The notes: generated by a model from the sequence alone, not told the origin. DNA of 32,000 nt from Erysipelothrix larvae (GCF_001545095.1 NZ_CP013213.1:870001-902000), one strand, 5' to 3'. Shown: positions 6,553-28,295, numbered from the stretch's first letter. Numbers and translations are program-made.

Positions 6553-8202
6553 ATGGATGATAAACGACTCATATATATATGCGGGCATCAATTTCCGGAT
6601 ACAGATTCAGTTGTATCAGCAATTGCTTATGCTCACTTAAAGCAAAGAAAAGGGATTAATGCAGTTGCATGCCGACTAGGGCCAATTAATGCAGAGACAG
6701 CATTTGTTCTTGAACGTTTTGGAATACGCAAGCCAATCTTATTGAAAGATGCACGTGCAACCTTAGAGGAAATAGAAATGGATGACGTCGTTTCAGTACG
6801 CATTCATACTACAATTAAAGAAGCCATGGAATTGATGTCTGAAACTGGAACACGAACACTTGCGGTTGTAAATGAAAAAAATCAACTGTTGGGCGTTGTA
6901 ACAAACTCCAATCTTGCTTATGTAGCGATTGGAGATACTGCACATACAATCAAAATGCTACAACAAACTCCAGTTGAAAATATCGCGAAGTCTATTGAAG
7001 GAAAAATTGTTTACGCGCCTTTAGATTTTAAATTTAATGGTAAAGTAAGTATTGTTGCGATCGCATCAACTAAGCTCCAAAATTATGAATTAAGTGGTAG
7101 ACTCGTTGTCATCGGAAATGACACGGATTCACAAATAGAAGCAATCAATCGAGGGGCAGCTTGTATCGTAACGGTATGGACAAAAGAAATTGCACCGGAA
7201 GTAATTGAAATGGCAAAAGAACATAATTGTGCCATTATCATGTCAGAGCATGGTTCTTTGAACACATCACGATACATCTTCTTTGCACCAAGTGTCGATA
7301 AGGTTATGTCAAGTGACCCAATTTACTTTAACAAAAGCGAATTTATCGATGATGCAGCCGATCGTATGTTGAAAACACGATACCGTTCCTATCCAGTTGT
7401 AGATGATCAAAATCGAATTTATGGTTTTGTATCTCGGTTTCACGTACTCAACAGTAAGAATAAGCGCGTGATTCTAGTTGACCACAATGAGTATTCTCAA
7501 AGTGTAGTAGGAATCGAAGAAGCTGAAGTACTTGAAGTGATTGATCACCATCGAATTGGTGATGTCAGCACCGCAAAACCAATCTATTTCAGAAATGAAA
7601 TTATAGGCTCAACAGCTTCAATCGTTGCGAAAATGTATGAAGAAGCAGGGGAGCAAATTCCAAAAGATATCGCTGGTTTACTCCTTGCAGCAATGATTTC
7701 TGATACATTGAATCTCAAATCGCCAACAACAACACCGCAGGATCTCAAAATCGCGGAGAAACTTTGTCAAATATCTGAAATCAATCGCGATGATTTTGCC
7801 CGTGAGATGTTTGAAATAACATCCTCTATTGGTAATAAATCATACGAAGAAATCATTAATCAAGATATTAAAAGTTTCAACCTATCAGGACACAATGTCG
7901 TGATAGGACAAGTCGTAGTTTATGAGTTTGATGAAGTCAACAATATCTTGGATGAATTCACCGATGCAATGGATCAATATGTAAAGGTAAACAAAATTGA
8001 CCTGCTTACCATTGTATTCACAAGTATTGTTGATAATGGATCAATTATCCTGGCTGCAGGTGAAATGAAAAAAGCAGTTCATGATGCATTTCCAAATCGT
8101 GAGGGTGAACGATATTCGTTCTTCTCTGATGTTGTGTCACGTAAAAATCAAATTGTTCCTAAATTATCTTATGCATTATCCCAATATAAAACATCAAAAT
8201 GA
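6553..8202 (+). CDS. ppaC: CBS-domain-containing family II (DHH/DHHA2) inorganic pyrophosphatase
   Basis: DHH-family motifs GHQFPDTDS, VDHNE and IDHHRIGD. A ~250-aa regulatory insert of CBS-pair type sits between motifs. C-terminal DHHA2-like region. Start at ATG 6553 after a purine-rich AAGGGG. Confidence 0.75.
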   Translation: MDDKRLIYICGHQFPDTDSVVSAIAYAHLKQRKGINAVACRLGPINAETAFVLERFGIRKPILLKDARATLEEIEMDDVVSVRIHTTIKEAMELMSETGTRTLAVVNEKNQLLGVVTNSNLAYVAIGDTAHTIKMLQQTPVENIAKSIEGKIVYAPLDFKFNGKVSIVAIASTKLQNYELSGRLVVIGNDTDSQIEAINRGAACIVTVWTKEIAPEVIEMAKEHNCAIIMSEHGSLNTSRYIFFAPSVDKVMSSDPIYFNKSEFIDDAADRMLKTRYRSYPVVDDQNRIYGFVSRFHVLNSKNKRVILVDHNEYSQSVVGIEEAEVLEVIDHHRIGDVSTAKPIYFRNEIIGSTASIVAKMYEEAGEQIPKDIAGLLLAAMISDTLNLKSPTTTPQDLKIAEKLCQISEINRDDFAREMFEITSSIGNKSYEEIINQDIKSFNLSGHNVVIGQVVVYEFDEVNNILDEFTDAMDQYVKVNKIDLLTIVFTSIVDNGSIILAAGEMKKAVHDAFPNREGERYSFFSDVVSRKNQIVPKLSYALSQYKTSK

Positions 8203-8275
8203 GATGCTTTCCAAACTGGCTCTAAACCAAAGAACATAAATTAGCCAAAAACGAAAATATTTTCTATGCTTAAAG

Positions 8276-8311
8276 AGGTACTATCACGAATAAGTGGTAG
8301 TACCTTTTTAT
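8276..8311 (+). terminator. rho-independent terminator
   Basis: 12-bp stem AGGTACTATCAC / GTGGTAGTACCT (one G-U pair), 6-nt loop, then TTTTTA. Confidence 0.8.
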
Positions 8312-8825
8312 CGATAAGCTAGAAGTTTATAATTCTCTGTGTTTTGGGTAAACAAAAAATTAAATTTTTGGTCAAATTACTTATTGATGGTATTTATTTA
8401 AATCTGTAAATCTTAGTAAAGAGCGTTAAGGTCGTTTACATAACTGGGAACTTCATAGTTTTCTGCAGTTCTGTGAATCTTTGACGCCTTCTTTCACTTC
8501 TGCTGAAGGGTTGTAATAAAATGCCTGAGTTTGACTAATACGTCCTTTAAGTTCTTCTAGTTTTTATACACCGGTTTTTTTTACGCTCTTGGTATAAATA
8601 TCAATTACTTTTTAAGAATATAAATAAAATGTATCTTAATATGAACCAAACCCTAAATCTGTTAGAATAATTTCTAGCTAAGTAACACAAGTAAAATTTC
8701 TTTCTTGTAGAAGAAAAAAATATCATCAAATATGATAATAAACGGTGATTTTTCACAAAATAAGCCATCTAAAGAACGAACTTTGTTAAAAATAATAAAA
8801 TATGTACATAATCCGGTTATATTAA

Positions 8826-8854
8826 TTGAAAGAAACGTGAAAACTCCCTATAAT
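8826..8854 (+). promoter_or_regulatory. near-consensus sigma-A promoter of the pilus locus (TTGAAA-17 nt-TATAAT)
   Basis: -35 TTGAAA at 8826-8831, exact 17-nt spacer, -10 TATAAT at 8849-8854. Lies 45 nt upstream of the first pilin ATG. Confidence 0.6.
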
Positions 8855-8898
8855 TTGGTTACAATCTTCATAGAAATGAACGAAAGCGAGAAAAACTG

Positions 8899-9165
8899 AT
8901 GAAAAAAGGGTTCACTTTAATCGAAGTTGTAGTTGCTTTAGCTCTATTGATTATTGTAGTTGCGGTCGTGAGTACAGCATTTGCTTTAACTGGTAGAGTT
9001 AACGCTGCAGCTAATCAAAAAATAACAGCCCAACAGGTTGCGGTGAACGCAACAGAAGAGCTGAGATATTTAGCAATCAATGAAAGCACTGATAAAGACA
9101 GTTTGTTAGTAAGTTTATCAGAAACTGATTTGTTTGGAACTTACAATGTTTTATCGGCGGTCTGA
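8899..9165 (+). pseudogene. minor (pseudo)pilin, N-terminal fragment truncated by IS insertion
   Basis: MKKG|FTLIEVVVALALL class III (prepilin) signal with Glu+5. The native frame leaves the gene at 9155 and runs 3 codons into the IS to a TGA at 9163-9165. Confidence 0.85.
9148..9155. repeat. target-site duplication GTTTTATC (left copy)
   Basis: Identical 8-mer at 11681-11688, directly flanking the IS. 8 bp is the TSD length typical of ISL3-family elements. Confidence 0.8.
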
Positions 9166-9245
9166 AATAACTTGGGGATAATTCAGAAAATGATATAAAA
9201 TAACTTGGGGAGTAAGTTACCCCAAACAAGTTTGTTAAAGACCAA

Positions 9246-9286
9246 AGGGAAGCGTAGTCGCACATGACTATAGCTTCCCTCTTTTT
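9246..9286. terminator. hairpin terminator downstream of the transposase, also oriented to stop + strand read-in
   Basis: AGGGAAGC (9246-9253) pairs with GCTTCCCT (9273-9280). Inner stem TAGTC/GACTA. Followed on + by CTTTTTG and on - by TTTGGTCTTT. Confidence 0.6.
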
Positions 9287-9315
9287 GTTATAGTATATCA
9301 ATAATGAGTCATTTC

Positions 9316-10791
9316 TTAAGAGAGTCCTTTGTCATAGGTTGTTTTAATTATTGGGTTAATTCGATATGTTGCGTCTTCATTAAGCACATACAACACACGA
9401 TTCCTAAACCGCTCCCAATTACGATAGCCACTTGCATTGTTTTTTATTTGCTTGATTATGCGATTTCGATTCTCAATCAACGCACTGTTTATGTGTGTTA
9501 TGGAAACTTCATAATGGGTTTCTCCTGTTTTCTTATTTGTGACCTTTGTGCATTTTTCTACTTTATTGAAAGTTGCGACAATTTCATTTTTCCACTTTCC
9601 TAAAGTTCGGCTAAAATCAACGATTGATGCAACTCTACTCTGAGCCATCACTCTGATGAGTGTGTTCAGATTCTCGTGTGCATTCTCAGCTTTTGATTCA
9701 TTGAAGAATTGATCGAGTAAGAACTTCATGTTATATGCATCTTCAAGGCCATTGCTCGTTTGAAGAATTAGGTCTATTATGTCGTAAAGGTTTAGAAACT
9801 TTCCCAATTTCTTATTGCGTTGTTTCGGTACATTTGGATCAAATATATTGTATTTCTTATCTTTAACTGTGGTTGTTGCTTTGGGGTTTTTATAGAGTAA
9901 CCAGTTGAACTTTTTAAGCAGATAGTATTGCTGGTCACGCTTATAATATTCTTGTCTTTTGACTTTATCTTCTGTTTGCTTCCAGTTCTTAGGAGGTTTT
10001 AGTTTCTTCATAGTGTCTACCCTAATAGAGTCGATACGTTTCATTAAATCACTATAAACATGAAAACGATCAACACTGATAAACGCGTTTGGAAGGAATT
10101 GTTTTGCGACGACTCTATAGCTATACCACATGTCGATTCCAATACCTAAGACTCCTTTGCGTTCTTCAAGGGGGATTTGGCTAAAATACGCGACTAAGTC
10201 TTGTTTCTTACGGGACGGTAATATATCTACGATATTCTTTGTCATTGCATCAATAAGAACGCATACATAATCACTGCGATCACTGTGGTACGCATAACAT
10301 TCATCAATAAGCAGATAAGCGGGTAGTTTTTGTCTGGAGACAGAAACGTGGGAATCGAAAATAGATGATACTGTAGTGGGAGATAACCGATATCTATTGG
10401 CAACTGTGGTAAACGTTTCATGTGGCGATTTAAGATCATTCAGGACATTATATACGGTCAGCTGAGTAATCTTCATATTTCGATACGCAAATGGATTGTG
10501 TTCAAAAAAGCATTTATTACACGTTGTGCATTTATAACGTCGTGCACGGTAACGAATGTAACAGGGTATATGTGTTACCAGTGAGTGGAGAAGCTTCTTT
10601 TCAGAATAATCTTTGATTGTGGATGTTTTGCTTTCACAAATTGGGCATGTTTGTTCCTCTACCTGAAGCGTAATGTACACATTCAATGCGTCACTTTGAC
10701 CTTTGATATCAATCTTCTGGACTTGATGGTGTTCTAAGTTAAATAATTCAAGAATTTTTTCGTTACTTAAAAGAGTGGCATTAGCGTTCAT
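9316..10791 (-). CDS. ISL3-family DDE transposase
   Basis: N-terminal Zn-finger (CPICES...CTTCNKCF). Family-typical blocks LLIDECYAYH, IGIDMWYSYR, SVDRFHV and NSALIENRNRIIKQIKNNASGYRNWERFRNR. Confidence 0.9.
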   Translation of the reverse strand: MNANATLLSNEKILELFNLEHHQVQKIDIKGQSDALNVYITLQVEEQTCPICESKTSTIKDYSEKKLLHSLVTHIPCYIRYRARRYKCTTCNKCFFEHNPFAYRNMKITQLTVYNVLNDLKSPHETFTTVANRYRLSPTTVSSIFDSHVSVSRQKLPAYLLIDECYAYHSDRSDYVCVLIDAMTKNIVDILPSRKKQDLVAYFSQIPLEERKGVLGIGIDMWYSYRVVAKQFLPNAFISVDRFHVYSDLMKRIDSIRVDTMKKLKPPKNWKQTEDKVKRQEYYKRDQQYYLLKKFNWLLYKNPKATTTVKDKKYNIFDPNVPKQRNKKLGKFLNLYDIIDLILQTSNGLEDAYNMKFLLDQFFNESKAENAHENLNTLIRVMAQSRVASIVDFSRTLGKWKNEIVATFNKVEKCTKVTNKKTGETHYEVSITHINSALIENRNRIIKQIKNNASGYRNWERFRNRVLYVLNEDATYRINPIIKTTYDKGLS

Positions 10792-10924
10792 AGAAACCCT
10801 GCCTCTCTTTGACTATTTTGATAAGGTTTCATTATGTATCTTGCTCCTAAATATAAAAATGATTGTCTGTTATTTAAATAACCATCTTCATTATATTCAA
10901 TCTGAGGAGTTAAAACTATTTTTC

Positions 10925-11395
10925 TCATGTTGGTGAAGTAATGGCGGAATGATAGATATTCCGTTTTGTGGATAATATGAAGTAATTCAATCGTTCCAAA
11001 TAACTTAAATGTCTCACCGATTCATAATCGTTAAAACGTATTTTTATCCGAATATATGTTGATTCATCAATATCAGTTAAAAGCGTGCTATCAAGTTCAT
11101 GGGTTAATATTATTTCAATTGTGGGTACAGACAGTTGAAAATAGGGAAGTAAGTTACTTGGTATTATTGCATGAGTTCTCTTACATTGATTACAAAAGAA
11201 ACGTGCGATTTCTACGACAATGGTTAATCGCCCAGTAATTATGGTTTTCGGATAGTATCCATAACGAATCAGTGTATCTGTTTTTGAACAGCACGGACAA
11301 GGTATTGTTTTTGGATTAATTGAATTGAGAAATTTGTAATATTCCTTTTGAGAAAACTGTTTATTATTGAATGTGTTTGAGAAAACTGTTATCAT
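10925..11395 (-). CDS. small Zn-ribbon protein co-carried by the IS (resembles the DUF6431 family; assignment from memory)
   Basis: 156 aa with CPCC...CNQC spaced like a zinc ribbon, followed by THAIIPSNLLPY. AAGGAG RBS 7 nt upstream. Same strand as, and upstream of, the transposase, and inside the IS inverted repeats. Confidence 0.6.
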   Translation of the reverse strand: MITVFSNTFNNKQFSQKEYYKFLNSINPKTIPCPCCSKTDTLIRYGYYPKTIITGRLTIVVEIARFFCNQCKRTHAIIPSNLLPYFQLSVPTIEIILTHELDSTLLTDIDESTYIRIKIRFNDYESVRHLSYLERLNYFILSTKRNIYHSAITSPT

Positions 11396-11495
11396 ATTCT
11401 TACTCCTTTATAGGAGGTATTGGATTGGTAGAAACTTAGGTCTGGAAACTTGGGGTTTCTACCATTTTATTAACCTCGTTAAACTAATAATACAA

Positions 11496-11548
11496 AAAAA
11501 ATCACTTTAATACAGCACTTAATTGTGCATAAAGTAAAGTGATTTTTT
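11496..11548. terminator. long A-tract/stem/T-tract hairpin near the IS end (bidirectional terminator-like)
   Basis: AAAAAATCACTTTA (11496-11509) is the perfect complement of TAAAGTGATTTTTT (11535-11548). An inner GCAC/GTGC stem is present. The stem is AT-rich, so function is uncertain. Confidence 0.4.
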
Positions 11549-11680
11549 ATTCTGCTGGTCTAAGATAATCAGTTTACAACAGAAATCCCCAAACTTCTTT
11601 AAAGACAGAGGCTAGAGCAAGATTACCTCACCCCAAGAAATAGTGTTGCGAGTGAAAACCCCAAGTAAAGTTTAATATCC

Positions 11681-11688
11681 GTTTTATC
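11681..11688. repeat. target-site duplication GTTTTATC (right copy)
   Basis: Identical to 9148-9155. Confidence 0.8.
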
Positions 11689-11833
11689 CAGTGACATCTA
11701 TGAATTTAACCTGGTTGATTATTCAATTGTTTTAAATTTCTCACGCGGTAATAAACTCGTTAAGTTATCCGTAACGCTTTCGAATGGGGAATCATTCGAG
11801 ACAATGGAGTGGTTAGAATATGCAGGATCGTAA
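11681..11833 (+). pseudogene. minor pilin, C-terminal fragment (continuation of 8899-9155)
   Basis: Open frame VLSSDIYEFNLVDYSIVLNFSRGNKLVKLSVTLSNGESFETMEWLEYAGS* with no start of its own. It is in frame with the N-terminal fragment once the IS and one TSD copy are removed. The stop at 11831-11833 overlaps the next gene's ATG at 11820. Confidence 0.8.
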
Positions 11834-12260
11834 AGGATTTACTTTAATTGAATTAATCATTGCAATGCTTATTTCTGGAATTGTCCTCACGATTCTGACA
11901 ACCTTTGTAATTTATGTTCTGAACATTCAAAGGAATCAAGAGAACTTTCTAATTGCACAAGATGCAGTTCGAGTTGCTGGACTAAAAATAGAAAAAGACA
12001 TTCGCACATCGTCACAATCAATCAAGGTAAGTACAGAATCAAATTGCACAACGATTAGTGAAAATGATTTTGATGTGCCTATAATCTACTGTTTATCACA
12101 AAACACACTAACAAGAAACGGTGATTTTGTTACGAACAATATTGAAACATTTACTATTACGCAAAGATTATCAGATGCAATTGATATTTATATTAAAGGA
12201 GTATATGAAGGGAGAGCTATTGAATATGACCAGAAAATCTATCTCAGAACTGCTTCATAG
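11820..12260 (+). CDS. minor pilin with prepilin-type N-terminal cleavage/methylation signal (PilW/GspJ-like)
   Basis: MQDRKG|FTLIELIIAMLISGIVL class III signal with Glu+5. 146 aa. Confidence 0.8.
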   Translation: MQDRKGFTLIELIIAMLISGIVLTILTTFVIYVLNIQRNQENFLIAQDAVRVAGLKIEKDIRTSSQSIKVSTESNCTTISENDFDVPIIYCLSQNTLTRNGDFVTNNIETFTITQRLSDAIDIYIKGVYEGRAIEYDQKIYLRTAS

Positions 12261-14328
12261 TAAGAAAGGATCAACCTTGATTACAGTTGTGATATTGTTC
12301 TTATTCTTCATGATAATCGTGAGTACAAGTGCAATTGCAGCTCAAAGCAATATAAAACGTGCTGTGACAACGAATCAGTATGAATCTGCTTACTATGTTG
12401 CGGAAACAGGATTGAGCGAATACACCGATAAAATCACAGACTTCATCAACACGTCAACCAAAGATTATAGTGGAAATTTCGCCCAACTCGTTACAGATTT
12501 CCTTGTGTCAAACAGTGCAAGTCCTGATGGCGTGATTACAAGTGATTATGGTCAAGTGATGGACAAACCTGCTATTGCTAAGATTCATTTAGTTTTGGAT
12601 CAAGTGGCAGATACAAGTGCAACGTTTACACTGACGTCTCAGGGTACTTTAAACAATAGTGAACGAACTGTTTCAAAATCATTTGTTTTCACTCAATCTT
12701 CATCTGGAGAATATGAATACGATGGCTTTAATTCAAATGGACTCATCACAATCGATTTGACAGCTACTTCAAATACAGCTATGGGAGTTCCGGCAAATGG
12801 AACAACCCTTACTGGTCCTGTAATTACAAATAAGCCCATCGATTTCACGAGTGAAATCATTATTAATTCAGCTGTTGTCACCAACAACAATATCACCATA
12901 CCAAATGGGATTACTTTACGTGGTGTACTTATTACATCGGGGAAAATTGAGATAAATACTAAAAGTGGAAATGCTTCATTACACACAGTTGTATTAAAAA
13001 AAGGTGGATCCATTTATGTTAATTTAGGTTACGTAAATGCGCTTAATACCATCGATTATGTATTAGTGCCAGAAGAATATAAAAATTCACTTTCATCGGT
13101 AATCACTTACAAAACGGACTCAGATACTAACAACGCATTTAATGCTGCAGCATATGAAAAGATTAAAAGCAAGGTCATTTTTTATAAACAACTCAACTTT
13201 AACCCTTGGGATATGAGTTTCTATTCGGACAGCAGTATTTATCCCAAATCAAACATTAATCCAGTCAGTATTTTTGGAGAAAAACCAACATCAAGTAATA
13301 ATGCTTTAGACTATGGTATCTATTTCCAGTCTGATTTTGTTTTAGACAATATGGATAAACCAGATATCGTGGATGATTACGTTCCTACTGTTGTGATGCC
13401 ACAGTTTCCAGAAACAACAAGCGCTAATGCATACAATCAAACTGGAAAGGCGATTACAGTTTCACCTCCAGGGAATGAGGGAACACGGTTTGAAATAGTC
13501 AGTGCAAATAACGAGTTTCGCTATTATAGCGAAATCGCGTATCAAACAAATTATCGAACACTCGATTTATCACAAGGTTCTCAAAAGGTCTACTCATTTG
13601 AATCATTTAAAGTGGAAGTTCCTACAGAGGGAGTCAATGACAAAACATTAACGATTAACGTAGGTGATAAAGATGTATCTTTAGTCGTCAAATCGTTCAA
13701 TATTGTAAATGCATCACTCAAAGTTGTTGGAACCGGTTCACTATCGGTATATGTGACAGGTAACAATGGTGTGACTAAACCAACAGATTTAACACTATCA
13801 ATATTTCAACTCGGCTTATATAACACCGAAGGTGGCGAAAATCAAAATGACCCCACTAAGTTCAAAGTTTTCGTCAAAAGTGTTTATAACACAGATGGTT
13901 CGCTTTATAACTTGTCTTTAGGTAATAATCAAAGGTTTGATTTGTATGCTTCTGTTTATTCACAAAACTTAAATGTCACCTTTGACTCACCATTCAAAGG
14001 AGCATTTGTATCAATTGATGGTACAAGTATAAACAAGAGTGGCTCAGGGAATGATATAAACAGTCCCTTAATCTTTGCACCAAAAGCCATCTTCGAAAAT
14101 CGTGGACTTACCACTGGATTTATTGTTGTGAAAAACTTCAAGTTTGGCGATTGGGGTGACTTATCCTTCAATCAACAGTTCGACAAAAATACACTTGAAG
14201 ACATTTTAGGGCCAGTTATTGCAGGTTCAACAAATGGTAGCGGTGGGAATGGATCGGGAACAACCAATCCAGGAACAAATCAAAAAATTCTAACATGGGG
14301 TTCTTCAAAAGAATTAGGAGGTGACTAA
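12226..14328 (+). CDS. giant (~700 aa) PilX_N / GspK-like minor pilin, candidate pilus tip protein or adhesin
   Basis: MTRKSISELLHSKKG|STLITVVILFLFFMIIV then ...YESAYYVAETGL, which fits a PilX N-terminal domain pattern. Position +5 is Thr, not Glu. Start set at ATG 12226 (GGGAGAG RBS) rather than the ORF-track 12121. Confidence 0.65.
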   Translation: MTRKSISELLHSKKGSTLITVVILFLFFMIIVSTSAIAAQSNIKRAVTTNQYESAYYVAETGLSEYTDKITDFINTSTKDYSGNFAQLVTDFLVSNSASPDGVITSDYGQVMDKPAIAKIHLVLDQVADTSATFTLTSQGTLNNSERTVSKSFVFTQSSSGEYEYDGFNSNGLITIDLTATSNTAMGVPANGTTLTGPVITNKPIDFTSEIIINSAVVTNNNITIPNGITLRGVLITSGKIEINTKSGNASLHTVVLKKGGSIYVNLGYVNALNTIDYVLVPEEYKNSLSSVITYKTDSDTNNAFNAAAYEKIKSKVIFYKQLNFNPWDMSFYSDSSIYPKSNINPVSIFGEKPTSSNNALDYGIYFQSDFVLDNMDKPDIVDDYVPTVVMPQFPETTSANAYNQTGKAITVSPPGNEGTRFEIVSANNEFRYYSEIAYQTNYRTLDLSQGSQKVYSFESFKVEVPTEGVNDKTLTINVGDKDVSLVVKSFNIVNASLKVVGTGSLSVYVTGNNGVTKPTDLTLSIFQLGLYNTEGGENQNDPTKFKVFVKSVYNTDGSLYNLSLGNNQRFDLYASVYSQNLNVTFDSPFKGAFVSIDGTSINKSGSGNDINSPLIFAPKAIFENRGLTTGFIVVKNFKFGDWGDLSFNQQFDKNTLEDILGPVIAGSTNGSGGNGSGTTNPGTNQKILTWGSSKELGGD

Positions 14329-14330
14329 AG

Positions 14331-15518
14331 ATGCCAAGTTATAAAGTCACGATGATTACACCAAATGGTGAAACGATAACGGATGTTTTACCAGTAGACA
14401 ACGTCAATCAATTATTAAGTCTTGTAAAGCAACGCGGGAATTATTGTGCAGACTATGAACTGGTAGAATCTTTCTCGAAAAATCATTTCAGACTAAAACT
14501 CAGCGCTTTAGTTGTATTCTGTTATCAAATGAGTGCCATGCTAAATGCAGGTGTTCCGCTAATTGAAGCTTTAAAAATGATTCAATCAAAAACTAGAAAG
14601 CCTAAAGAACGTAATATCTACAGTAATCTCTATGAAGAAGTTCAAAAAGGAAACGCGCTGTCTGTTGCGATGCTAAGACAAGAAGGGGTCTTTGATCCCT
14701 TACTCATTAGTATGATTCAATCAGGCGAACAAAGTGGCTCCCTAGGCGAAATCTTAGAAACCATGTCGCGTCAATATGATCGCGATAAACGAGTAAAAAG
14801 CAAACTAAGAAGTGCGAGTATTTATCCGGTGGTTCTCTTAGTTGTGTCAATAGCAGTTGTGGTAATACTTGTAGTATTTGTCTTGCCAGGCATCACATCA
14901 TCTTTCCCAGAATCTGCGATGCCAGCATTAACACGCGTATTATTAGGGATATCACACTTCATGATTAACCGTTGGTATGTTGTATTGATGATTGTTTTAG
15001 CACTGGGTGGTGGGACTTATCTAATGATTCGAAATAAAGAAACACGCTTAAAAATAGATCAATCAATCTTGAGAATCCCAATTGCAGGTGAGCTTATGAA
15101 AACGATTTACTCAGCACGGGTTGCACGCTCATTTGCATCTTTATATAAGCATGGTATTCCTGCACTCAAAATGATTGATTTAACAAGTCGTGTCATTGGA
15201 AATACCTATTTAGAAAAGCAATTTGAACAAGTTTATGTAGAAGTTAGTCGTGGTGAGCTGATTTCAAATTCAATCGAAGCAATTCAAGAGTTTGATTCAA
15301 TGTTACCTACGATGATTCGTGTCGGTGAAGAAACCGGAGACCTTGAAGGCATTTTGTCTAAGATAGCGAACTACTTTGATGAAGAGTCTGAAGCCGCAAT
15401 GACACGTCTTGTAGGACTGGTAGAACCAATGATGATTATCATTTTAGGCATTATGGTCGCAATTATCGTAATCGCAATCATGCAACCAATCTTTACCATG
15501 TATCAATATGTTCAGTAA
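14331..15518 (+). CDS. pilC: type IV pilus platform protein PilC (GspF/T2SS-F family)
   Basis: 395 aa with a duplicated GspF-type domain and 3 TM segments. GGAGGTG RBS. Confidence 0.85.
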   Translation: MPSYKVTMITPNGETITDVLPVDNVNQLLSLVKQRGNYCADYELVESFSKNHFRLKLSALVVFCYQMSAMLNAGVPLIEALKMIQSKTRKPKERNIYSNLYEEVQKGNALSVAMLRQEGVFDPLLISMIQSGEQSGSLGEILETMSRQYDRDKRVKSKLRSASIYPVVLLVVSIAVVVILVVFVLPGITSSFPESAMPALTRVLLGISHFMINRWYVVLMIVLALGGGTYLMIRNKETRLKIDQSILRIPIAGELMKTIYSARVARSFASLYKHGIPALKMIDLTSRVIGNTYLEKQFEQVYVEVSRGELISNSIEAIQEFDSMLPTMIRVGEETGDLEGILSKIANYFDEESEAAMTRLVGLVEPMMIIILGIMVAIIVIAIMQPIFTMYQYVQ

Positions 15519-15530
15519 GTGGAGAAAATT

Positions 15531-16412
15531 ATGAAATATGTAATTGAAATAAGAGATCAGTCTATTCTGGTTTTAGCAGGAAAACATGCTAAGAAAAAAA
15601 TAAACCTTGCAACCGACTTTCGAATTGATTTTGATACACCGATCATAGAAGATGGGAAACTATTAAATCATTATGACATCATTAAACAAATTAAAGAAGC
15701 AATTAAAGCACATCATCTTGTGATCACAAAAGTACGCGTGATAATGAATAACAAATCAATCCTTACGCGTGACCTAACGATTCCAAAAGTTGAAGCGAAA
15801 CAAAAATCAACACTGATAAAAAATGAAATGATTACACTGCTTAATCTTAACAGTGATTATGTTGTGGACTATCGTGATTTGTCAGATGTCAGAACAAAGG
15901 ATGGAAAACAACGTGTCCTTGCCTGTGCATTGAGTGGTGAAACAATCGATTCAATTGAACAATTCTTTAAAATGTTAAAAATTAAAATCGACTCAATCGA
16001 TGCCTCCGTCTCAACAATGATTCACTTTATCCAAACCTTCGAACTTGTAAACAAGAATCTATCGTCACTGGTCATCGACATTAACGATTCTTATGTGCGT
16101 AATTATCTCTTTATGAATGGAGAGTTATTACTCTTTAGAACTTTCTTTATCCAAGAAGATGCAAATATCGAACTTGTTACAAATCGCATCTACCAAATCA
16201 TCGATAACATTAAACAACAGCATGAAGGTGAAGCGAAACAAGCAATCTCTGAAATTGTCTTGCTTGGAAATCGAAACCGATATCCTATCGTCACAGCACG
16301 TTATAATGATGATCCGAATATGAACGTAAAATGCACAAATATCACAGACTATGTTAAAACATCCACTAAAAACTTCATGGGTTATGGAAATGGGTTAGGA
16401 GGGCTTCTATGA
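15531..16412 (+). CDS. pilM: type IV pilus assembly protein PilM (actin-like ATPase fold)
   Basis: Soluble protein of about 293 aa placed directly before a PilN-like gene (ATGA overlap). Start at ATG 15531 after GGAG; the ORF track uses GTG 15519. Family call rests on position, size and overall pattern. Confidence 0.6.
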   Translation: MKYVIEIRDQSILVLAGKHAKKKINLATDFRIDFDTPIIEDGKLLNHYDIIKQIKEAIKAHHLVITKVRVIMNNKSILTRDLTIPKVEAKQKSTLIKNEMITLLNLNSDYVVDYRDLSDVRTKDGKQRVLACALSGETIDSIEQFFKMLKIKIDSIDASVSTMIHFIQTFELVNKNLSSLVIDINDSYVRNYLFMNGELLLFRTFFIQEDANIELVTNRIYQIIDNIKQQHEGEAKQAISEIVLLGNRNRYPIVTARYNDDPNMNVKCTNITDYVKTSTKNFMGYGNGLGGLL

Positions 16413-16966
16413 AAAAGCACATTAACTTATATGATGCCTATTTAGAAGGTCAAAAAGGCCGGCGGTCACGTTCTAAAAACTTAAAATATGTGGTGGTATT
16501 GTTGGCTCTAGGACTAATTATTGGTGGTTATGGTACAAAGCTTACATTGGATAGAACATCCCTTCAAAACGAAATTCAGAAACTCTCATCCTATGTCACA
16601 AACACTTCAAATCAAGACGTTGTGAAAAAGGCTGAAGCAATCCAAACCGATATCAGTACCATGACACAGCTCAGTGATGCTTTGGATAATATTGTTTCCG
16701 TATTTGATGAGAAACAATCCATCAGTGGCGCTATGATCAAGCAAATCACACAAGCTTTACCAAATGGTGTCACACTAAAATCCATCGGCTTTCATGGTGC
16801 TGCAATTTCATTGACCATTGCTTCAACAACCAACAATGGTCCATCCGAATTTGTTGATAAGATTTTGAAACTTGATTTTGTTGAGACAGTTGATTACAAA
16901 GGCTACACATCATCAGGAAATGTCTTCTCAAGTAACTTCTTAGTGGTACTAAAGGGGGATTATTAA
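16409..16966 (+). CDS. pilN: PilN-like bitopic assembly protein
   Basis: N-terminal MKKHINLY resembles the PilN INLLP PilM-binding motif. It is followed by a basic stretch, one TM (YVVVLLALGLIIGGYG) and an extracellular domain. Confidence 0.6.
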   Translation: MKKHINLYDAYLEGQKGRRSRSKNLKYVVVLLALGLIIGGYGTKLTLDRTSLQNEIQKLSSYVTNTSNQDVVKKAEAIQTDISTMTQLSDALDNIVSVFDEKQSISGAMIKQITQALPNGVTLKSIGFHGAAISLTIASTTNNGPSEFVDKILKLDFVETVDYKGYTSSGNVFSSNFLVVLKGDY

Positions 16967-16967
16967 G

Positions 16968-17606
16968 ATGAGTAAATTATCAAAACGCGAAGTATTATTG
17001 TTGTTTATGTTGGGGTTCGTATTGATTATTGGTGTGGGTGTTCCACTATGGATCGTTCCACTTCAAGAGGAAATTAATACACTTTCCCTTGAAAAATCGA
17101 CACTGGATCAAGAAAAGATGCGCATTGAATCCTTAATCAATCAAGAAGACGCGTTGAGTGAACGAAAACTTGAGTCAATCAAAGAAACCGATGACCTTCT
17201 CTCAAAGATATCAGTTCGTGTAAAACCGAGTGAATTTGATCAGTTTCTCAATGACACCTTATCCACTGCAGGCTTCACCATTCAATCCATCAGTTATGGT
17301 GAGATTGCACCAACGGTTCCTCAAGTCATTTCAGCCGATGAATCAACCGTTGAGTATTCGTTGAAAACCCTCTTTGATCAATATAAGAATGTGAAATCAG
17401 AAGGGGGAACATCTGAAACGATTGCTGATGAACTTTTAAAACAAACCATCACGATTACAATGAATGGAAGTGAAGCCAACCTTCCACAACTCATTGACAC
17501 GGTCAATGAAATGGGAAACACCTATTTTATTTCTTCAATTGCCTATACAAAAGGTGATGCAACAAGCACAATCACCTTAAATTTAGATATTTATTTTATT
17601 GATTAA
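16968..17606 (+). CDS. pilO: PilO-like bitopic assembly protein
   Basis: Short cytoplasmic N-terminus, one TM (LLLFMLGFVLIIGVGVPLWIV), a coiled-coil segment and a C-terminal globular part. Positioned after pilN. Confidence 0.5.
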   Translation: MSKLSKREVLLLFMLGFVLIIGVGVPLWIVPLQEEINTLSLEKSTLDQEKMRIESLINQEDALSERKLESIKETDDLLSKISVRVKPSEFDQFLNDTLSTAGFTIQSISYGEIAPTVPQVISADESTVEYSLKTLFDQYKNVKSEGGTSETIADELLKQTITITMNGSEANLPQLIDTVNEMGNTYFISSIAYTKGDATSTITLNLDIYFID

Positions 17607-17609
17607 TTG

Positions 17610-18362
17610 CTAACGAATAAAAAGCGACAGGTACATGCTCACAAGTTCAGTACCAATCAAATATGCGCAAAAGATTCCAAAGCATAAATAAGGACCAAAG
17701 GGTATTTCAGATTTCAACCCTTTAGACTTTAAAGCTAAAGCAAAAATACCATATAATCCACCGATTATCACACCAATGAAGAAGGCAACCACAATGTTTG
17801 TTGCACCAAGCAAAAAACCACTGGAGGCCATAAGCTTGATGTCACCACCACCCATTCCCTTTGTTATTAGGGCAATGATAAGAAGTGGAACACTGACGAT
17901 CACGGTTCCAACCAGTGAGGATATCAAGTTACCTTCTAAAAAGAACAATTGAATAAGTCCCAAAAGGAAAATCAGCACATGAAAACGATCATTGATAATC
18001 ATTGTATCGATATCTATGAATGTGATGATGATGAGGATTGACGCAAGGGCACATGCAAGTGCAGTCTGTAGAGTTAATCCAAATCGCATAAAGCTTAATA
18101 GAAAGGTGAGTGAGGTAAGAACCTCAAGCAACGGATAGCGCCAAGATAACTTTGTCTTGCAGTATCGACAGCGCCCTTTCTGAATCAAAAAACTAAAAAT
18201 TGGAACTAAGTCAAGTGCTCCCAGTTCATGATGACAGTTGTCACATTCTGACCTTCCAGTCGCTATATTTCGCTTTGCTGGAAGTCGATCAATCACAACG
18301 CCATAAAAGGAACCAAGCACGAGACCAAGAATTCCAATAAAAACCATATAAATTTCATTCAT
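17610..18362 (-). CDS. pilD: prepilin peptidase / N-methyltransferase (peptidase A24, PilD)
   Basis: GSFYGVVIDRLP start, four-Cys cluster CDNC...CRYC, and catalytic Asp motifs FIDIDTMIINDR and GMGGGDIKL. Confidence 0.9.
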   Translation of the reverse strand: MNEIYMVFIGILGLVLGSFYGVVIDRLPAKRNIATGRSECDNCHHELGALDLVPIFSFLIQKGRCRYCKTKLSWRYPLLEVLTSLTFLLSFMRFGLTLQTALACALASILIIITFIDIDTMIINDRFHVLIFLLGLIQLFFLEGNLISSLVGTVIVSVPLLIIALITKGMGGGDIKLMASSGFLLGATNIVVAFFIGVIIGGLYGIFALALKSKGLKSEIPFGPYLCFGIFCAYLIGTELVSMYLSLFIR

Positions 18363-18404
18363 AGTATCACCAGAGACATTATACCAAAAGAAAGGTGGGT
18401 TCGG

Positions 18405-20057
18405 ATGAAAAATTTAAAACTTGGAGAATTATTAGTAAATGACCATCTCATCACACAAGAACAACTTGATGATGCCTTGGAAATTCAACGTGAAGTCCAT
18501 AAGAAATTAGGTCAAATATTTATAGAAATGCAATTGATAAGTGAAAATGAGTTGCTAACAGTACTTGCTGACAAACTCGGATTTCATTATTCAGAGCAAC
18601 CACTCTCACTTGTAGAGAATGGTATACAAGATGTCGTTTCCAGTGAATTTGTTAGAGCCAATAAAATTTTGCCATTATATATCAAAAATGGAACGCTCTA
18701 CGCTGCGACCAATGATCCCCTTGATTTCGCAACATTTGAAGACTTAAGCATGATAACTGGACTTGACACCCGTCCAATTGTTTCACCCCTTAGCAAGATT
18801 GAACAAGGCATTGGGGTTGTCTATTCGTTTACCGATGAGAATATTTCTGAAGCAGATAAACTAAGCATTCAAGAAGAACAACTGATGCAGCGCGTTGATT
18901 CAGCACCGGTTGTTAAACTGGTGAACCAAATCATCTCGAATGCTCAATCACTCAATGCATCAGATATACACATTGAACCGGAAGAAGATGTAACGAAAAT
19001 TCGATACCGCATCGATGGCATTCTCAGTGACCAAATGACATTGAAAAAAGAATTGCATGACTTAATTACTACGCGTATCAAGATCATATCAGGCATGAAT
19101 ATTGCAGAAAAACGATCACCACAAGATGGTGCGTTCAGGATTCAAACCGATTTTCTTAGAATCGATATTCGTGCAAGTTCAATTCCTACCCCCAAAGGTG
19201 AAAAGATTGTGCTTCGACTTCTTGGTTCCGATCGTAACGTTCAATATGAATTATCCAAAATTGACATATCCGACACAATTAAGGATAAACTACGAAAAAT
19301 ATCTCAAGTTCCAAATGGAATCTTATTACTAACAGGACCTACAGGAAGTGGTAAAACAACAACCTTGTACTCGCTCCTTCATGAAATCGCAACACGAGAA
19401 CGCAGTGTAGTGACAATCGAAGATCCTGTTGAAAAACAATTTGATGGCATCACTCAAGTACAAGTTAACCCACGTGCTGGGCTAACCTTTGCTACAGGAC
19501 TACGCTCTATTATGAGGCAAGACCCGGATGTCATCATGGTCGGAGAAATTAGAGATACAGAAACCGCAACAATTGCCATTCGTGCCGCAATCACAGGGCA
19601 CTTTGTATTGTCGACATTGCACACAAATGACGCAATTGCATCAATCGCAAGACTTGTTGATATGGGCGTTGAGCCGTTTATGGTTGCATCTTCAGTAAAA
19701 GCAGTTCTCGCACAACGTTTGGTACGTAAAGTATGTCCACATTGTGCTACTAAAGAAGAAACATCCCCTGAAGACCGACGATTACTCGGAGATCCAAATC
19801 TAACACATACTATGAAAGGAGGTGGTTGCGAGCGATGCGACCACACAGGATACCTTGGACGGTCTGCTGTGTTTGAGATTGTATTTGTCGATGAAGTAAT
19901 TCAAGACATGATAGCATCTGGCGCAAAAGCTCAGGAAATAAGAGAGTACGCTAAAACGCAAGACAGCCAATTCTTACAAGATGATATTCTTCGTTTAGTA
20001 AGAGAAGGCAAAACGACTGTACAAGAAGCACGGCGAATCTTGTTCAGTATCGATTAA
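18405..20057 (+). CDS. pilB: type IV pilus extension ATPase PilB (GspE/T2SS-E family)
   Basis: Walker A GPTGSGKTTT, Asp box, Walker B (DPDVIMVGEIRD), His box (TGHFVLSTLHTND), tetracysteine CPHC...CERC, and an N-terminal T2SSE_N/MshEN-like domain. Confidence 0.92.
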   Translation: MKNLKLGELLVNDHLITQEQLDDALEIQREVHKKLGQIFIEMQLISENELLTVLADKLGFHYSEQPLSLVENGIQDVVSSEFVRANKILPLYIKNGTLYAATNDPLDFATFEDLSMITGLDTRPIVSPLSKIEQGIGVVYSFTDENISEADKLSIQEEQLMQRVDSAPVVKLVNQIISNAQSLNASDIHIEPEEDVTKIRYRIDGILSDQMTLKKELHDLITTRIKIISGMNIAEKRSPQDGAFRIQTDFLRIDIRASSIPTPKGEKIVLRLLGSDRNVQYELSKIDISDTIKDKLRKISQVPNGILLLTGPTGSGKTTTLYSLLHEIATRERSVVTIEDPVEKQFDGITQVQVNPRAGLTFATGLRSIMRQDPDVIMVGEIRDTETATIAIRAAITGHFVLSTLHTNDAIASIARLVDMGVEPFMVASSVKAVLAQRLVRKVCPHCATKEETSPEDRRLLGDPNLTHTMKGGGCERCDHTGYLGRSAVFEIVFVDEVIQDMIASGAKAQEIREYAKTQDSQFLQDDILRLVREGKTTVQEARRILFSID

Positions 20058-20101
20058 GGGATAGCCGTAATTTATATTAACTAAGAAAGAGGAGAAATAT
20101 T

Positions 20102-20476
20102 ATGAAATTAGTTAAAAACAACAAAAACAAAAAAGGATTTACATTAATAGAATTAATCGTAGTTATCGCGATTATTGCAATCTTAGCACTCATCTTAATC
20201 CCAACCATCTCAGGATACATCGCACGTGCAGAACATGCACGTGATGAAGCAAATGCTCGTAACCTCTATACTGCTGCAATTTTAGTTGCTGAAACAGAAA
20301 ACGTTGACCTTAATGCAACAGATGCTGGTGCTAATGTGTATGGAAAGGCTAAGGCTTATATTACAGTTCCTGCTGACGTAACAGCATCGGTTACTGTTAC
20401 CAATGGCGAAATTACAAGTGTAACCTACAATGATGTTACATTTAATGGAAGCGAATTTACAACTCCAACAGAGTAA
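20102..20476 (+). CDS. pilA: major type IV pilin (prepilin)
   Basis: MKLVKNNKNKKG|FTLIELIVVIAIIAILALILIP. 124-aa precursor. Strong AAGAGGAG RBS and its own terminator. No Cys. Confidence 0.85.
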   Translation: MKLVKNNKNKKGFTLIELIVVIAIIAILALILIPTISGYIARAEHARDEANARNLYTAAILVAETENVDLNATDAGANVYGKAKAYITVPADVTASVTVTNGEITSVTYNDVTFNGSEFTTPTE

Positions 20477-20522
20477 CATTCTCACTTTACTTTTAGGGTG
20501 ACGATTATTACATACAATCACA

Positions 20523-20553
20523 AGTCTTTGGGTTAAAATCCAAAGGCTTTTTG
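20523..20553 (+). terminator. rho-independent terminator after the major pilin
   Basis: 9-bp stem AGTCTTTGG / CCAAAGGCT (one G-U pair), 8-nt loop, T-run. Confidence 0.65.
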
Positions 20554-20610
20554 TCATTAGGTGGGAATATGAATGAAATGTGATAAATAGTGTTATATCG
20601 CTGATAAGGC

Positions 20611-20638
20611 TTGGTTATTTTACATTTTCGTGTATAAT
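20611..20638 (+). promoter_or_regulatory. candidate sigma-A promoter of pfk (TTGGTT-16 nt-TATAAT)
   Basis: Hexamers read directly. Lies 33 nt upstream of the pfk ATG. Confidence 0.45.
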
Positions 20639-20670
20639 ATTAAGTGGAAAACGAAGGAGAGAATTTACAT

Positions 20671-21879
20671 ATGGCAAATTGTTTAGTTGCTCAATCTGGT
20701 GGACCTACTTCTGTAATCAATGCAACGGTTGCAGGTGTTGTTAAGGCAAACCAATTGAACCCTATTTATGATACAGTTTACGGTGGTTTACACGGTATTG
20801 AAGGTATTCTACAAGAAATGTTTGTAGATCTAACACACATGAGTGAGGACGAAAATAAAGTACTTCGTCAAACACCATCAAGTGCATTAGGATCATGCCG
20901 TTATAAATTAAAACGTGAAAACGTGAAAGACTTCGAAAGACTCTTTGAAGTTATGGAAAAATACGACATTGAAACATTATTCTACACAGGTGGAAATGAC
21001 TCAATGGATACAGTATACGCTTTAAGCGAATATGCTCAAAAGAATGGAATCACAAACCGTCGTTTTGTTGGTTGTCCTAAGACTGTCGACAATGACTTAA
21101 TGGTTACTGATCACTGTCCAGGTTTCGCAAGTGCTGCGAAATTCATCGCAACAACTGCTGCACAAACATGGTTAGATAGCACAGTGTACACACGTCAAGA
21201 TGTATTTATTCTTGAAACAATGGGTCGCGATGCTGGATGGCTTGCTGCTAGTGCTTGTGTTTCTGGAAATGTTGATGTTCTTGTATTGCCTGAAATCGCA
21301 TTTGATAAAGAAGCATTCTTAGCAACTGTTAAAAAACACATCGATGAAAAGAACAAGTGCTACATTGTAGTATCAGAAGGTGTTCGTTATGCTGATGGTA
21401 CTTACTTAGCTGCTGGCGAAAGCAAAAATGACCTCTTTGGTCACGCTGTTTTAGGTGGCGCAGGTTCTGCACTTCGTGAAATGATTTTAGAAGCTGGAAT
21501 TTCTGAGCGTGCAAAAGTACAAGACTTAGCAAATGCTCAACGTTCACACGCTGTTGGACAATCACTTGTTGATGTTGAAGAATCATTCAAACTTGGTATG
21601 TCAGCACATATGCGTTCTGCTGATAAATCATTCTCAGGTAAAATGGTTGGTGTTAAACGTGTTGAAGGTGACAAGTATGATGTTGAGTTCTTTGCAACTG
21701 ATGCATCAAATGTCGCAAACCATGTTAAAAACTTCCCAACTGAATGGGCACTTCCTGATTTTGCAGGGATTTCTCAAGAAGCAATCGACTACATTGCACC
21801 ATTATTAGTGGGCGAACCAGTTGTGCTTTATGACGAACGTGGATTACCACGTCACGTAGTTCCTTACTACATGCGTTAA
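20671..21879 (+). CDS. pfk: PfkA-family 6-phosphofructokinase, predicted pyrophosphate-dependent
   Basis: Motifs TGGNDS, CPKTVDND and MGRDAGW. Start at ATG 20671 after an AGGAGA RBS (ORF-track start is 20644). Confidence 0.85.
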   Translation: MANCLVAQSGGPTSVINATVAGVVKANQLNPIYDTVYGGLHGIEGILQEMFVDLTHMSEDENKVLRQTPSSALGSCRYKLKRENVKDFERLFEVMEKYDIETLFYTGGNDSMDTVYALSEYAQKNGITNRRFVGCPKTVDNDLMVTDHCPGFASAAKFIATTAAQTWLDSTVYTRQDVFILETMGRDAGWLAASACVSGNVDVLVLPEIAFDKEAFLATVKKHIDEKNKCYIVVSEGVRYADGTYLAAGESKNDLFGHAVLGGAGSALREMILEAGISERAKVQDLANAQRSHAVGQSLVDVEESFKLGMSAHMRSADKSFSGKMVGVKRVEGDKYDVEFFATDASNVANHVKNFPTEWALPDFAGISQEAIDYIAPLLVGEPVVLYDERGLPRHVVPYYMR

Positions 21880-21884
21880 TTAAA

Positions 21885-21910
21885 GGCTCCTCATCTGAGG
21901 AGTCTTTTTA
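21885..21910 (+). terminator. rho-independent terminator after pfk
   Basis: GGCTCCTC-ATCT-GAGGAGTC followed by TTTTT. Confidence 0.8.
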
Positions 21911-21956
21911 TTTGCTCTATTTTTTTTATTAAAAGCAGAAAATAATTTATTGAATT

Positions 21957-21982
21957 AAGCACCAGGTTCTGGTGCTTTTTTA
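21957..21982 (+). terminator. second hairpin plus T-run
   Basis: AAGCACCAG-GTTC-TGGTGCTT followed by TTTT, 47 nt after the first terminator. Confidence 0.6.
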
Positions 21983-22001
21983 TGAACATTGTCTATTTTT
22001 A

Positions 22002-22045
22002 TGCTATAATGGTGGTACGAAGTGGTATAAAGTGGAAGAAAGTGG
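22002..22045 (+). promoter_or_regulatory. dcw promoter (TGcTATAAT, 22002-22010) plus four direct GTGG boxes at a 10-bp period (candidate MraZ operator)
   Basis: GTGG at 22012-22015, 22022-22025, 22032-22035 and 22042-22045. In context: GGTGGTACGA AGTGGTATAA AGTGGAAGAA AGTGGTGAAT. Confidence 0.65.
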
Positions 22046-22054
22046 TGAATTCAG

Positions 22055-23689: not shown

Positions 23690-23691
23690 TG

Positions 23692-25842: not shown

Positions 25843-25852
25843 GGGTTTAGAT

Positions 25853-28092: not shown

Positions 28093-28143
28093 AAAAGTTC
28101 AAATAGTACTAAAACATATAATTCAAAGATCATAAAGTCGATA

Positions 28144-28196
28144 CCAACCCAACATTGCGCATAAACAGCCGATTATAGTGGGTTGGTTTCTTTTTG
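28144..28196 (+). terminator. hairpin plus T-run ending the dcw unit
   Basis: CCAACCCA (28144-28151) pairs with TGGGTTGG (28179-28186). The loop is long (27 nt). Followed by TTTCTTTTT. Confidence 0.5.
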
Positions 28197-28295
28197 TGAG
28201 AAAACACGACGAGAACTTTTTGTTTGGATTGGGAGCTGATTCACATTTTTTACGTGATGAATCAATCCATTTTTGTTTAAAGATAGGTCTCGTTT

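Follow-up and report, generated by a model that had tools for sequence, protein, structure and literature searches.

A PilT-less, probably vertically inherited type IVa-like pilus locus interrupted by an insertion sequence in Erysipelothrix larvae LV19

What kind of fibre is encoded by the pilus genes of Erysipelothrix larvae LV19, a beetle-gut bacterium, and how did these genes come to lie between housekeeping genes? We analysed a 32-kb stretch of the LV19 chromosome (NZ_CP013213.1, 870001–902000; hereafter the window, with positions counted from its first nucleotide), in which an initial annotation, made from the sequence alone, had described a self-contained Gram-positive type IV pilus (T4P) locus that looked like an accessory insertion. 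As a whole, the pil locus is probably best explained as a chromosomal, vertically inherited locus of the type IVa pilus (T4aP)-like kind, arranged in the layout of an Erysipelotrichaceae lineage, lacking pilT and hit by an insertion sequence (IS). Its product is best read as a type IVa-like pilus without PilT that would serve in attachment or aggregation. Public records AOC36_04005 through AOC36_04040 include exact matches to PilB, PilC, PilD, PilA and a 700-amino-acid (aa) protein of the window, under the names hypothetical, GspE/PulE family, type II secretion system (T2SS) F family, A24 peptidase and prepilin-type. Full-text literature searches turned up no account of type IV pili in Erysipelothrix, E. 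larvae or the family. Operons of pil genes have been known across Gram-positive classes since 2011 (PMC3244431), and a 2025 Bulleidia paper describes tad and comG loci from the family but does not include this pil locus (PMC12786226).

Assembly machinery and prepilins

Ten pil genes follow one another in the order minor pilin, minor pilin, ComZ-like large pilin, pilC, pilM, pilN, pilO, pilD (antisense), pilB and pilA. Those for the assembly machinery are:

14331–15518, plus strand: PilC platform protein (T2SSF in two stretches, E 2.4e-56, 189.5 bits; GspF/PilC models match)
15531–16412, plus strand: PilM, actin-like cytoplasmic component (TIGR01175 1e-6, sub-threshold; orthologue profile A1 to 3jc8 PilM, 1.8e-14, and to 2ych, 3.4e-7)
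16409–16966, plus strand: PilN, bitopic membrane component (Pfam PilN 21.4 bits against a cut-off of 22.8; profile A2 to 3jc8 PilN as top hit, 1.8e-4)
16968–17606, plus strand: PilO-like bitopic membrane component (profile A3 to 3jc8 PilO first, 2.4e-3; GspM 0.02; place after PilN conserved)
17610–18362, minus strand: PilD prepilin peptidase/N-methyltransferase (A24_N_bact 1.1e-32, 112 bits; Peptidase_A24 3.5e-15, 57 bits)
18405–20057, plus strand: PilB extension ATPase with an N-terminal MshEN/GSPII domain (T2SSE 6e-124, 414 bits; MshEN 1.5e-11)

The initial annotation had listed PilC, PilM/N/O, PilD on the opposite strand and PilB at these coordinates; all are present, and all fall in T4P families. 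It had also proposed profile hidden Markov model searches of each open reading frame (ORF), which placed the pilins, PilC, PilD and PilB, and reached PilM, PilN and PilO only through profiles from related loci. Searches of Pfam with these three as single sequences gave sub-threshold matches or none, and the profiles, built from 12–14 orthologues of related contigs, each found its counterpart chain in the Myxococcus T4aP machine 3jc8 as top hit. The E. inopinata orthologue of PilM matches PF11104, and that of PilO gives a weak T2SSM match; the window's pilM has an alternative GTG start at 15519. In PilD, the motifs CxxC...CxxC, DxD and GGGD can be read directly in the sequence. PilB aligns over its full length in PDB with Thermus PilF, its best match, and with Geobacter and Myxococcus PilB, and stays below the equivalog cut-offs of TIGR02538 and TIGR02533.

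The pilD gene lies between pilO and pilB, from which 3 and 42 nt separate it, and it is antisense in 17 related loci too. Given this position, the pilD promoter must sit inside pilB, and read-through of the operon would collide with it.

We rejected a ComG competence pseudopilus. Such a system shares class III prepilins, an A24 peptidase and the lack of a retraction ATPase with the window, but it has no PilM/N/O, its ComGA is short and without an N-terminal domain, and its gene order is another. Here PilM, PilN and PilO are present, the ATPase is of the full-length PilB/PilF type, and the ComG models score below cut-off: ComGA on PilB reaches 267 against 300 and covers only the core (residues 175–441), and ComGB on a locus protein reaches 152 against 240. 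The argument of the initial annotation that PilMNO speaks against a ComG pseudopilus is thus borne out. Membership in the T2SS was likewise rejected, since no ORF of the locus matches a secretin (GspD) or GspC/GspL in Pfam or NCBIfam.

Four proteins had been said to share the class III signal KG↓(F/S)TLI(E/T). The motifs are indeed there, as MKKG↓FTLIE at 8899, MQDRKG↓FTLIE at 11820, SKKG↓STLIT (preceded by further residues and without Glu5) at 12226 and NKKG↓FTLIE (also preceded by further residues) at 20102, and three of the four proteins pass Pfam N_methyl (28.9, 36.7 and 41.0 bits for those at 8899, 11820 and 20102; cut-off 21.2). The ORF at 8899, which we take up below, is a truncated fragment. 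The three other prepilin genes are:

11820–12260, plus strand: second minor pilin, pil146, 146 aa (N_methyl; sub-threshold HpsC and ComGF; conserved in related loci)
12226–14328, plus strand: ComZ-like large tip pilin, 700 aa (modelled as a pilin domain with a beta-solenoid of about 470 residues inserted before the last strand)
20102–20476, plus strand: candidate major pilin PilA, 124-aa precursor with a 12-aa leader and no cysteine (N_methyl; type IVa pilin N-terminus matches in PDB)

The three upstream pilins give weak ComGE, ComGF and ComGG matches, and the position of pil146 suggests a GspJ/ComGF-like role. Profiles of the two small minor pilins found pilins in PDB via the N-terminal helix only, which does not establish a GspI/GspJ identity.

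The 700-aa protein falls below the N_methyl threshold by itself, and Glu5 is missing across its family too. Word-indexed homologue searches, with the protein singly or with a 7-sequence alignment, returned the query alone, and the profile of a small alignment (A4) found nothing significant in PDB. When 1.84 billion representatives were searched exhaustively with HMMER, no more than 152 clusters matched at E up to 1e-3. Family members match Pfam DUF7305 (51 of 63), PilX_N (30 of 63), pAdhesive_15, an ice-binding-like adhesive model (13 of 63), an adhesin head (8 of 63) and N_methyl (3 of 63). A single-sequence AlphaFold model had a predicted local distance difference test score (pLDDT) of 38.9; we replaced it with an AlphaFold2 model based on the 63-sequence alignment from the exhaustive search (pLDDT 89.2, predicted template modelling score 0.74). 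In this model a helix (16–76) is followed by the strands of a four-stranded sheet (104–158), a solenoid (about 173–647) and the last strand (686–697). Foldseek against PDB gave one significant relative, Thermus ComZ (6qvi; E 1.4e-5, probability 0.99, identity 12–13%), which the family profile also reached by sequence (E 1.1e-4); global template modelling scores were low (0.16–0.21). ComZ belongs with the GspK-like pilins, its last strand being preceded by an inserted beta-solenoid, and a tip position and DNA binding have been argued for it (PMC6561018). We class the 700-aa "PilX" as a tip pilin of the ComZ-like kind that bears a beta-solenoid. Because of its relation to ComZ, the three upstream genes would in our reading encode a priming and tip complex, capped by the ComZ-like protein and with a surface or DNA as its ligand.

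This kinship is also what makes a Thermus-type transformation pilus the main rival explanation: DNA would be caught by the ComZ-like tip pilin, serving as its receptor, and carried by the filament to the cell surface. ComZ, the sole significant PDB relative of the 700-aa pilin, binds DNA, for which it has two lysines, and is required for transformation but dispensable for piliation (PMC6561018); among PDB structures PilB matches Thermus PilF best, and the ComGE and ComGF matches of the small pilins, weak as they are, point the same way. We nevertheless consider DNA uptake unlikely to be the function of the locus. Identity to ComZ is just 12–13%, and members of the 700-aa family match adhesin-type Pfam models. 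Uptake normally requires retraction, and pilT is absent from the locus; comEA and comEC were not found nearby, and a separate comG operon has been reported in Erysipelotrichaceae (PMC12786226).

An ISL3-family element in the first minor-pilin gene

The ORF at 8899 ends at a stop codon (9163–9165) that lies within a mobile element. Its 88-aa product had been counted as a pilin; it is a fragment of an IS-split gene whose intact form has 133 aa. The features of this region, with the predicted boundaries of the transcription unit, are:

8271–8310, plus strand: terminator hairpin that follows the CBS-DHH pyrophosphatase gene and delimits the pil transcription unit on the left (17-bp inverted repeat; RNA fold −24.9 kcal/mol, z −6.3)
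8826–8854, plus strand: sigma-70-like promoter TTGAAA-17-TATAAT 5' of the first minor-pilin gene, predicted only (11 of 12 consensus matches, best within 8000–21000)
8899–9155, plus strand: 5' part of the split minor-pilin gene, GspI/PilV/ComGE-like (N_methyl; weak ComGE, PilV and GspI matches)
9148–9155: left copy of the target-site duplication GTTTTATC (8-mer identical to the right copy)
9156–11680, minus strand: ISL3-family insertion sequence, 2525 bp (target-site duplication, putative imperfect inverted repeats, transposase)
9316–10791, minus strand: ISL3 transposase (DDE_Tnp_ISL3 1.3e-40; NF033550 transpos_ISL3 212 bits against 180; Zn_ribbon_ISL3, HTH_Tnp_ISL3)
10925–11395, minus strand: DUF6431 gene, paired with the ISL3 transposase
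11681–11688: right copy of the target-site duplication GTTTTATC (8-mer identical to the left copy)
11689–11833, plus strand: 3' part of the split minor-pilin gene (in frame with 8899–9155 after removal of the IS; overlaps the ATG of the next gene)
20522–20549, plus strand: intrinsic terminator after pilA, right boundary (12-bp stem, then TTTTT; −13.9 kcal/mol, z −5.1)

Deleting the IS together with one copy of GTTTTATC joins 8899–9155 to 11689–11833 in frame and restores a pilin of 133 aa. The reconstructed protein aligns end to end with intact orthologues, for example with a 134-aa ORF of a related locus (L083, 1594–1983) at 40% identity; the 88-aa ORF is therefore a truncated gene product. 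The ends of the element are putative imperfect inverted repeats, which agree at only 15 of 30 terminal positions and have in common an initial GG and the sequence CTTGGGG at 16–22. In E. larvae, identical copies of the DUF6431 protein number at least four, plasmid included, so the element is multi-copy. A second IS copy that might confirm the ends was found neither in the contig index, searched with the transposase and the DUF6431 protein, nor among plasmids. In a second, E. larvae-like sample (SRR6161627), Logan contigs L082 and L081 end within the IS, 30 and 25 nt from its two ends, and the insertion is therefore common to both samples.

The promoter and the two bracketing terminators claimed in the initial annotation are present, as consensus or energy matches. 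Within the IS, hairpins at 9246–9280 and 11496–11548 are flanked by A/U runs and are terminator-like on the plus strand; by their sequence, both would terminate in both directions. No promoter match of at least 9 of 12 positions was found between 11549 and 11819, that is, from the IS to pil146. Because the IS carries these plus-strand hairpins and no promoter match precedes pil146, a polar effect on pil146 through pilO is likely. The proposal that the locus is self-contained is not supported: the IS interrupts one minor-pilin gene of three, and its two terminator-like hairpins separate pil146–pilO from the sole strong promoter. The description as a full extension machine for a monoderm holds for the T4aP-type extension machine itself, not for the first minor-pilin gene, which the 2525-bp IS divides. 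The remaining nine pil genes are intact. On balance we lean, by a small degree, towards piliation in LV19 being reduced or abolished by the IS.

Inheritance of the locus and strain variation

The initial annotation had pointed to an accessory insertion and had named the presence or absence of the block between the ppaC-like and pfk genes of relatives as a test. We made two scans, one of 80 Erysipelotrichaceae loci centred on phosphofructokinase (PFK) and one of metagenome contigs centred on PilC. The first found the whole pil locus upstream of PFK in one locus (L003) and a pilA-like gene there in two more; beside PFK, the locus was not found in E. tonsillarum, E. inopinata or most other Erysipelotrichaceae of this set. 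E. inopinata carries an identical ten-gene pil locus elsewhere in its genome. In the PilC-centred scan, the ten-gene order with antisense pilD recurs in about 20 contigs. One of these, L085, has MarR-ABC-ABC-MBL-HAD-pyrophosphatase directly 5' of the pil block, the same as the window; L083 and an Erysipelothrix metagenome-assembled genome (L114) have the pyrophosphatase on one side and PFK on the other, and in L115 PFK follows pilA directly. Identities of these same-flank relatives to the window are 61–63% for PilB, 63–68% for the pyrophosphatase and 75–81% for PFK, roughly species to genus level.

A recent horizontal insertion of an accessory island between housekeeping genes is therefore largely refuted, and we regard it as very improbable. 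It could draw on the 696-bp AT-rich spacer upstream, on the absence of the locus beside PFK in E. tonsillarum and most of the 80 PFK loci, on its different genomic place in E. inopinata and on the mobile element within it. Against this stand the same block beside or between the same flanks in L085, L083, L114, L115 and L003 despite PilB identities of 61–63%, and a G+C content (GC) of 0.372 in the pil genes against 0.378 in the flanking genes, with GC at third codon positions (GC3) also matching the flanks. No integrase, tRNA or bordering repeats of the block were found, and the IS interrupts a pilin gene instead of bordering the block. E. tonsillarum, which lacks the locus there, is closer to the window in PFK identity (84%) than the carriers are (75–81%), which points to loss, not gain. 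The presence/absence test thus speaks largely against an accessory element, though the position varies within the genus, and the data fit an old chromosomal locus, later rearranged or lost in some species, better than an island inserted in E. larvae.

The spacer itself (8203–8898, GC 0.287) separates the pyrophosphatase gene from the first pilin gene; relatives have about 120 bp or an APH gene (in L083) at this position. Rfam gave no match to it, with E allowed up to 1, and neither a remnant of an APH gene such as that of L083 nor similarity to any related locus was found in it.

We compared LV19 with the E. larvae-like sample over window positions 963–28301, using contigs L082 and L081 for SRR6161627. 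There is 1 mismatch in the 8223 nt upstream, none in 11656–15046, 37 in 15047–20297 and 40 in 20445–28301. The genes for pil146 and the 700-aa protein are identical, and divergence is 0.5–0.7% from 15047 on, a mosaic that suggests a recombination breakpoint near 15 kb. PilB shows 6 synonymous and 0 non-synonymous differences, and this bias suggests that the machine genes are under constraint, at least in the donor lineage. Within pilA, window positions 20298–20444 correspond to 8643–8765 of L081, where the central and C-terminal part of PilA is unrelated (124 against 116 aa), the flanking DNA being 99.5% identical. An exposed pilin region seems to have undergone allelic replacement here, which resembles the usual variability of exposed major pilins.

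The replacement in PilA bears on a further explanation, a type II-secretion-like pseudopilus that would push folded protein through the thick peptidoglycan, as has been proposed for the second pil set of Clostridium perfringens. Export of BsaC in that species needs PilA3, PilB2, PilC1, PilD and PilMNO, not PilT or two minor pilins (PMC11580942), a list that matches the locus, and the window's PilB scores 522 bits with the GspE model against 509 bits with the PilB model. Yet no conserved candidate cargo gene adjoins the locus. A variable region replaced between near-identical strains is expected of an exposed subunit, not of a buried piston, and an external fibre is where a 700-aa tip pilin bearing an adhesin-like solenoid would fit. 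A secretion role is accordingly quite improbable in our judgement.

The flanking genes are those that the initial annotation had claimed, a pyrophosphatase and a phosphofructokinase, here a CBS-DHH inorganic diphosphatase and a pyrophosphate (PPi)-dependent PFK. From the left, the window holds the 23S rRNA 3' end, 5S rRNA, MarR, two ABC exporters, an MBL-fold protein, a HAD hydrolase and the CBS-DHH inorganic diphosphatase; to the right of the pil region, the PPi-dependent PFK is followed by a mraZ-rsmH-ftsL-pbp-mraY-murD cluster. The rRNA genes (1–952) are followed directly by protein-coding genes, without trailing tRNAs. At 28597–30291 lies a 564-aa polytopic membrane ORF without a Pfam or NCBIfam match, between genes for a ComN-like post-transcriptional regulator (28325–28600) and a RecJ-like protein (30269–31828). 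Bacillus has secDF at the equivalent position, and the ORF may be a very divergent SecDF.

Loss of pilT, a proposed mechanism and known relatives

The initial annotation noted that no PilT is encoded here, and this is confirmed for the 32-kb window, which holds no second T2SSE-type ATPase gene. In distant contigs (PilC identity 41–47%), a pilT/PilU-family gene of 351 aa lies directly between pilB and pilA (L086 15024–16079, L092 15924–16979, and L087, L088, L093–L095, L097 and L107), with TIGR01420 scores of 444–448 bits against a cut-off of 319. A pilT gene after pilB is absent from the window and from L083, L085, L003, L113, L114 and L115. Judged by these gene orders, pilT is lost from the locus of the Erysipelothrix clade.

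A second neighbour differs in a similar manner. Between pilA and PFK, six relatives (L083, 10832–12952; L003; L053; L007; L061; L085) carry a PAS-GGDEF-HD-GYP gene. The N-terminal domain of PilB scores 62 bits with NF053729, a cyclic di-GMP (c-di-GMP) motif domain (cut-off 38). Like Vibrio cholerae MshE, it has the MshEN layout of tandem 24-residue motifs with a 5-residue spacer (PMC5013675), two motifs in this case, with the spacer canonical and the hydrophobic positions kept. The MSHA system differs in being diderm and in using PilT (PMC9815625), and the motifs of the window's PilB differ from those of MshE in starting with Lys, not Arg, and in having the turn Gly replaced.

Taking the locus to encode a PilT-less type IVa-like pilus for attachment or aggregation, we propose the following mechanism. 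All four prepilins would be cleaved and N-methylated by PilD. A priming complex of the two small minor pilins with the Glu5-less ComZ-like pilin would come to lie at the filament tip, where the beta-solenoid of about 470 residues would be displayed as a binding module; priming by GspI/J/K-like minor pilins and the tip place of the Glu5-less subunit follow the ComZ/GspK reasoning (PMC6561018). PilB, working on PilC and aligned by PilM-N-O, would polymerise PilA below the tip complex and push the filament through the peptidoglycan; pilin, PilD, PilB, PilC and PilMNO are the Gram-positive core set (PMC11580942). Assembly would probably be gated by c-di-GMP, as for an adhesion/biofilm pilus, because PilB has an MshEN-type domain and relatives keep the PAS-GGDEF-HD-GYP gene near pilA. 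Since the clade's locus encodes no PilT, the pilus is expected to be non-twitching, and any retraction would be PilT-independent.

Several points weigh against this proposal or parts of it. It is known here from genes alone. PilO, at E 2.4e-3, is a weak call and the least firm assignment in the locus, and the I and J roles of the two small minor pilins are drawn only from gene order and size. The solenoid could bind DNA instead of a surface, as ComZ does. The negative result for pilT covers the 32-kb window, and a pilT gene could lie elsewhere in the 2.5-Mb genome. With regard to gating, the window has no GGDEF/HD-GYP gene, only a terminator lying between pilA and PFK. Both PilB motifs start with Lys for Arg and have lost the turn Gly (H14, Q43); these changes mark the Erysipelothrix clade, where the motif is degenerate in E. 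inopinata, and pilT-bearing relatives keep Arg. Because the motif Arg and turn Gly are replaced, c-di-GMP binding is uncertain, and c-di-GMP control, plausible for the family, is uncertain for this protein. No c-di-GMP riboswitch was found at the locus. Finally, the IS may be tolerated, as the other genes are intact and seemingly constrained and the insertion is present in two strains that are about 0.5% diverged downstream.

A more speculative version, which we consider distinctly unlikely, has an ancestral retractile pilus (pilB-pilT-pilA) converted into a PilT-less, ComZ-like-capped DNA receptor or uptake fibre of a monoderm, outside the ComG paradigm, or makes the conserved antisense pilD a regulatory device in which transcriptional interference would couple prepilin processing to read-through. 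If the PilT-less conversion were true, the presence of the IS in both E. larvae strains would show that assembly, with no retraction motor opposing it, can do without the GspI-like pilin.

Among known systems, the T4aP of C. perfringens and Clostridioides difficile share with the window a monoderm host, pilins, PilD, PilB, PilC and PilM-N-O, the lack of a secretin (PMC11580942) and cysteine-less pilins. The window departs from them in its antisense pilD between pilO and pilB, in having minor pilins first and pilA last, in lacking pilT in the locus and the window, in its ComZ-like large minor pilin and in having no detected c-di-GMP riboswitch. Clostridial type IVa pili are linked to c-di-GMP and to adhesion and biofilms. 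The Thermus thermophilus system (PilF; pilA1-pilA3, comZ, pilA4) shares the large pilin with a solenoid before the last strand, as far as our model goes, and the GSPII/MshEN-type N-terminus of the ATPase; it differs in being diderm, with a PilQ secretin and PilT proteins, and its PilF has three GSPII domains against one in the window's PilB. The pilus of Streptococcus sanguinis is also Gram-positive and type IVa-like, with minor pilins that bear bulky modules (PMC4832360; bioRxiv 10.1101/2021.01.27.428410). It is, however, retractile and PilT-powered, its vWA and lectin modules are grafted on rather than being an inserted solenoid, and its gene order is another.

The locus opens no new machine class, and the copy in the window is probably impaired. 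Gram-positive type IV pili have been studied almost solely in clostridia and S. sanguinis, and an Erysipelotrichaceae locus adds an unstudied family. For this lineage it defines a compact ten-gene layout, with a tip pilin of a ComZ-like type that was earlier characterised structurally in Thermus. Together with its relatives it offers a natural reduction series, in which pilT was lost, the GGDEF/HD-GYP neighbour was lost and a minor pilin was hit by an IS. Since the genus includes animal pathogens, the locus is a candidate adhesion or DNA-binding organelle that can be compared by presence and absence across species.

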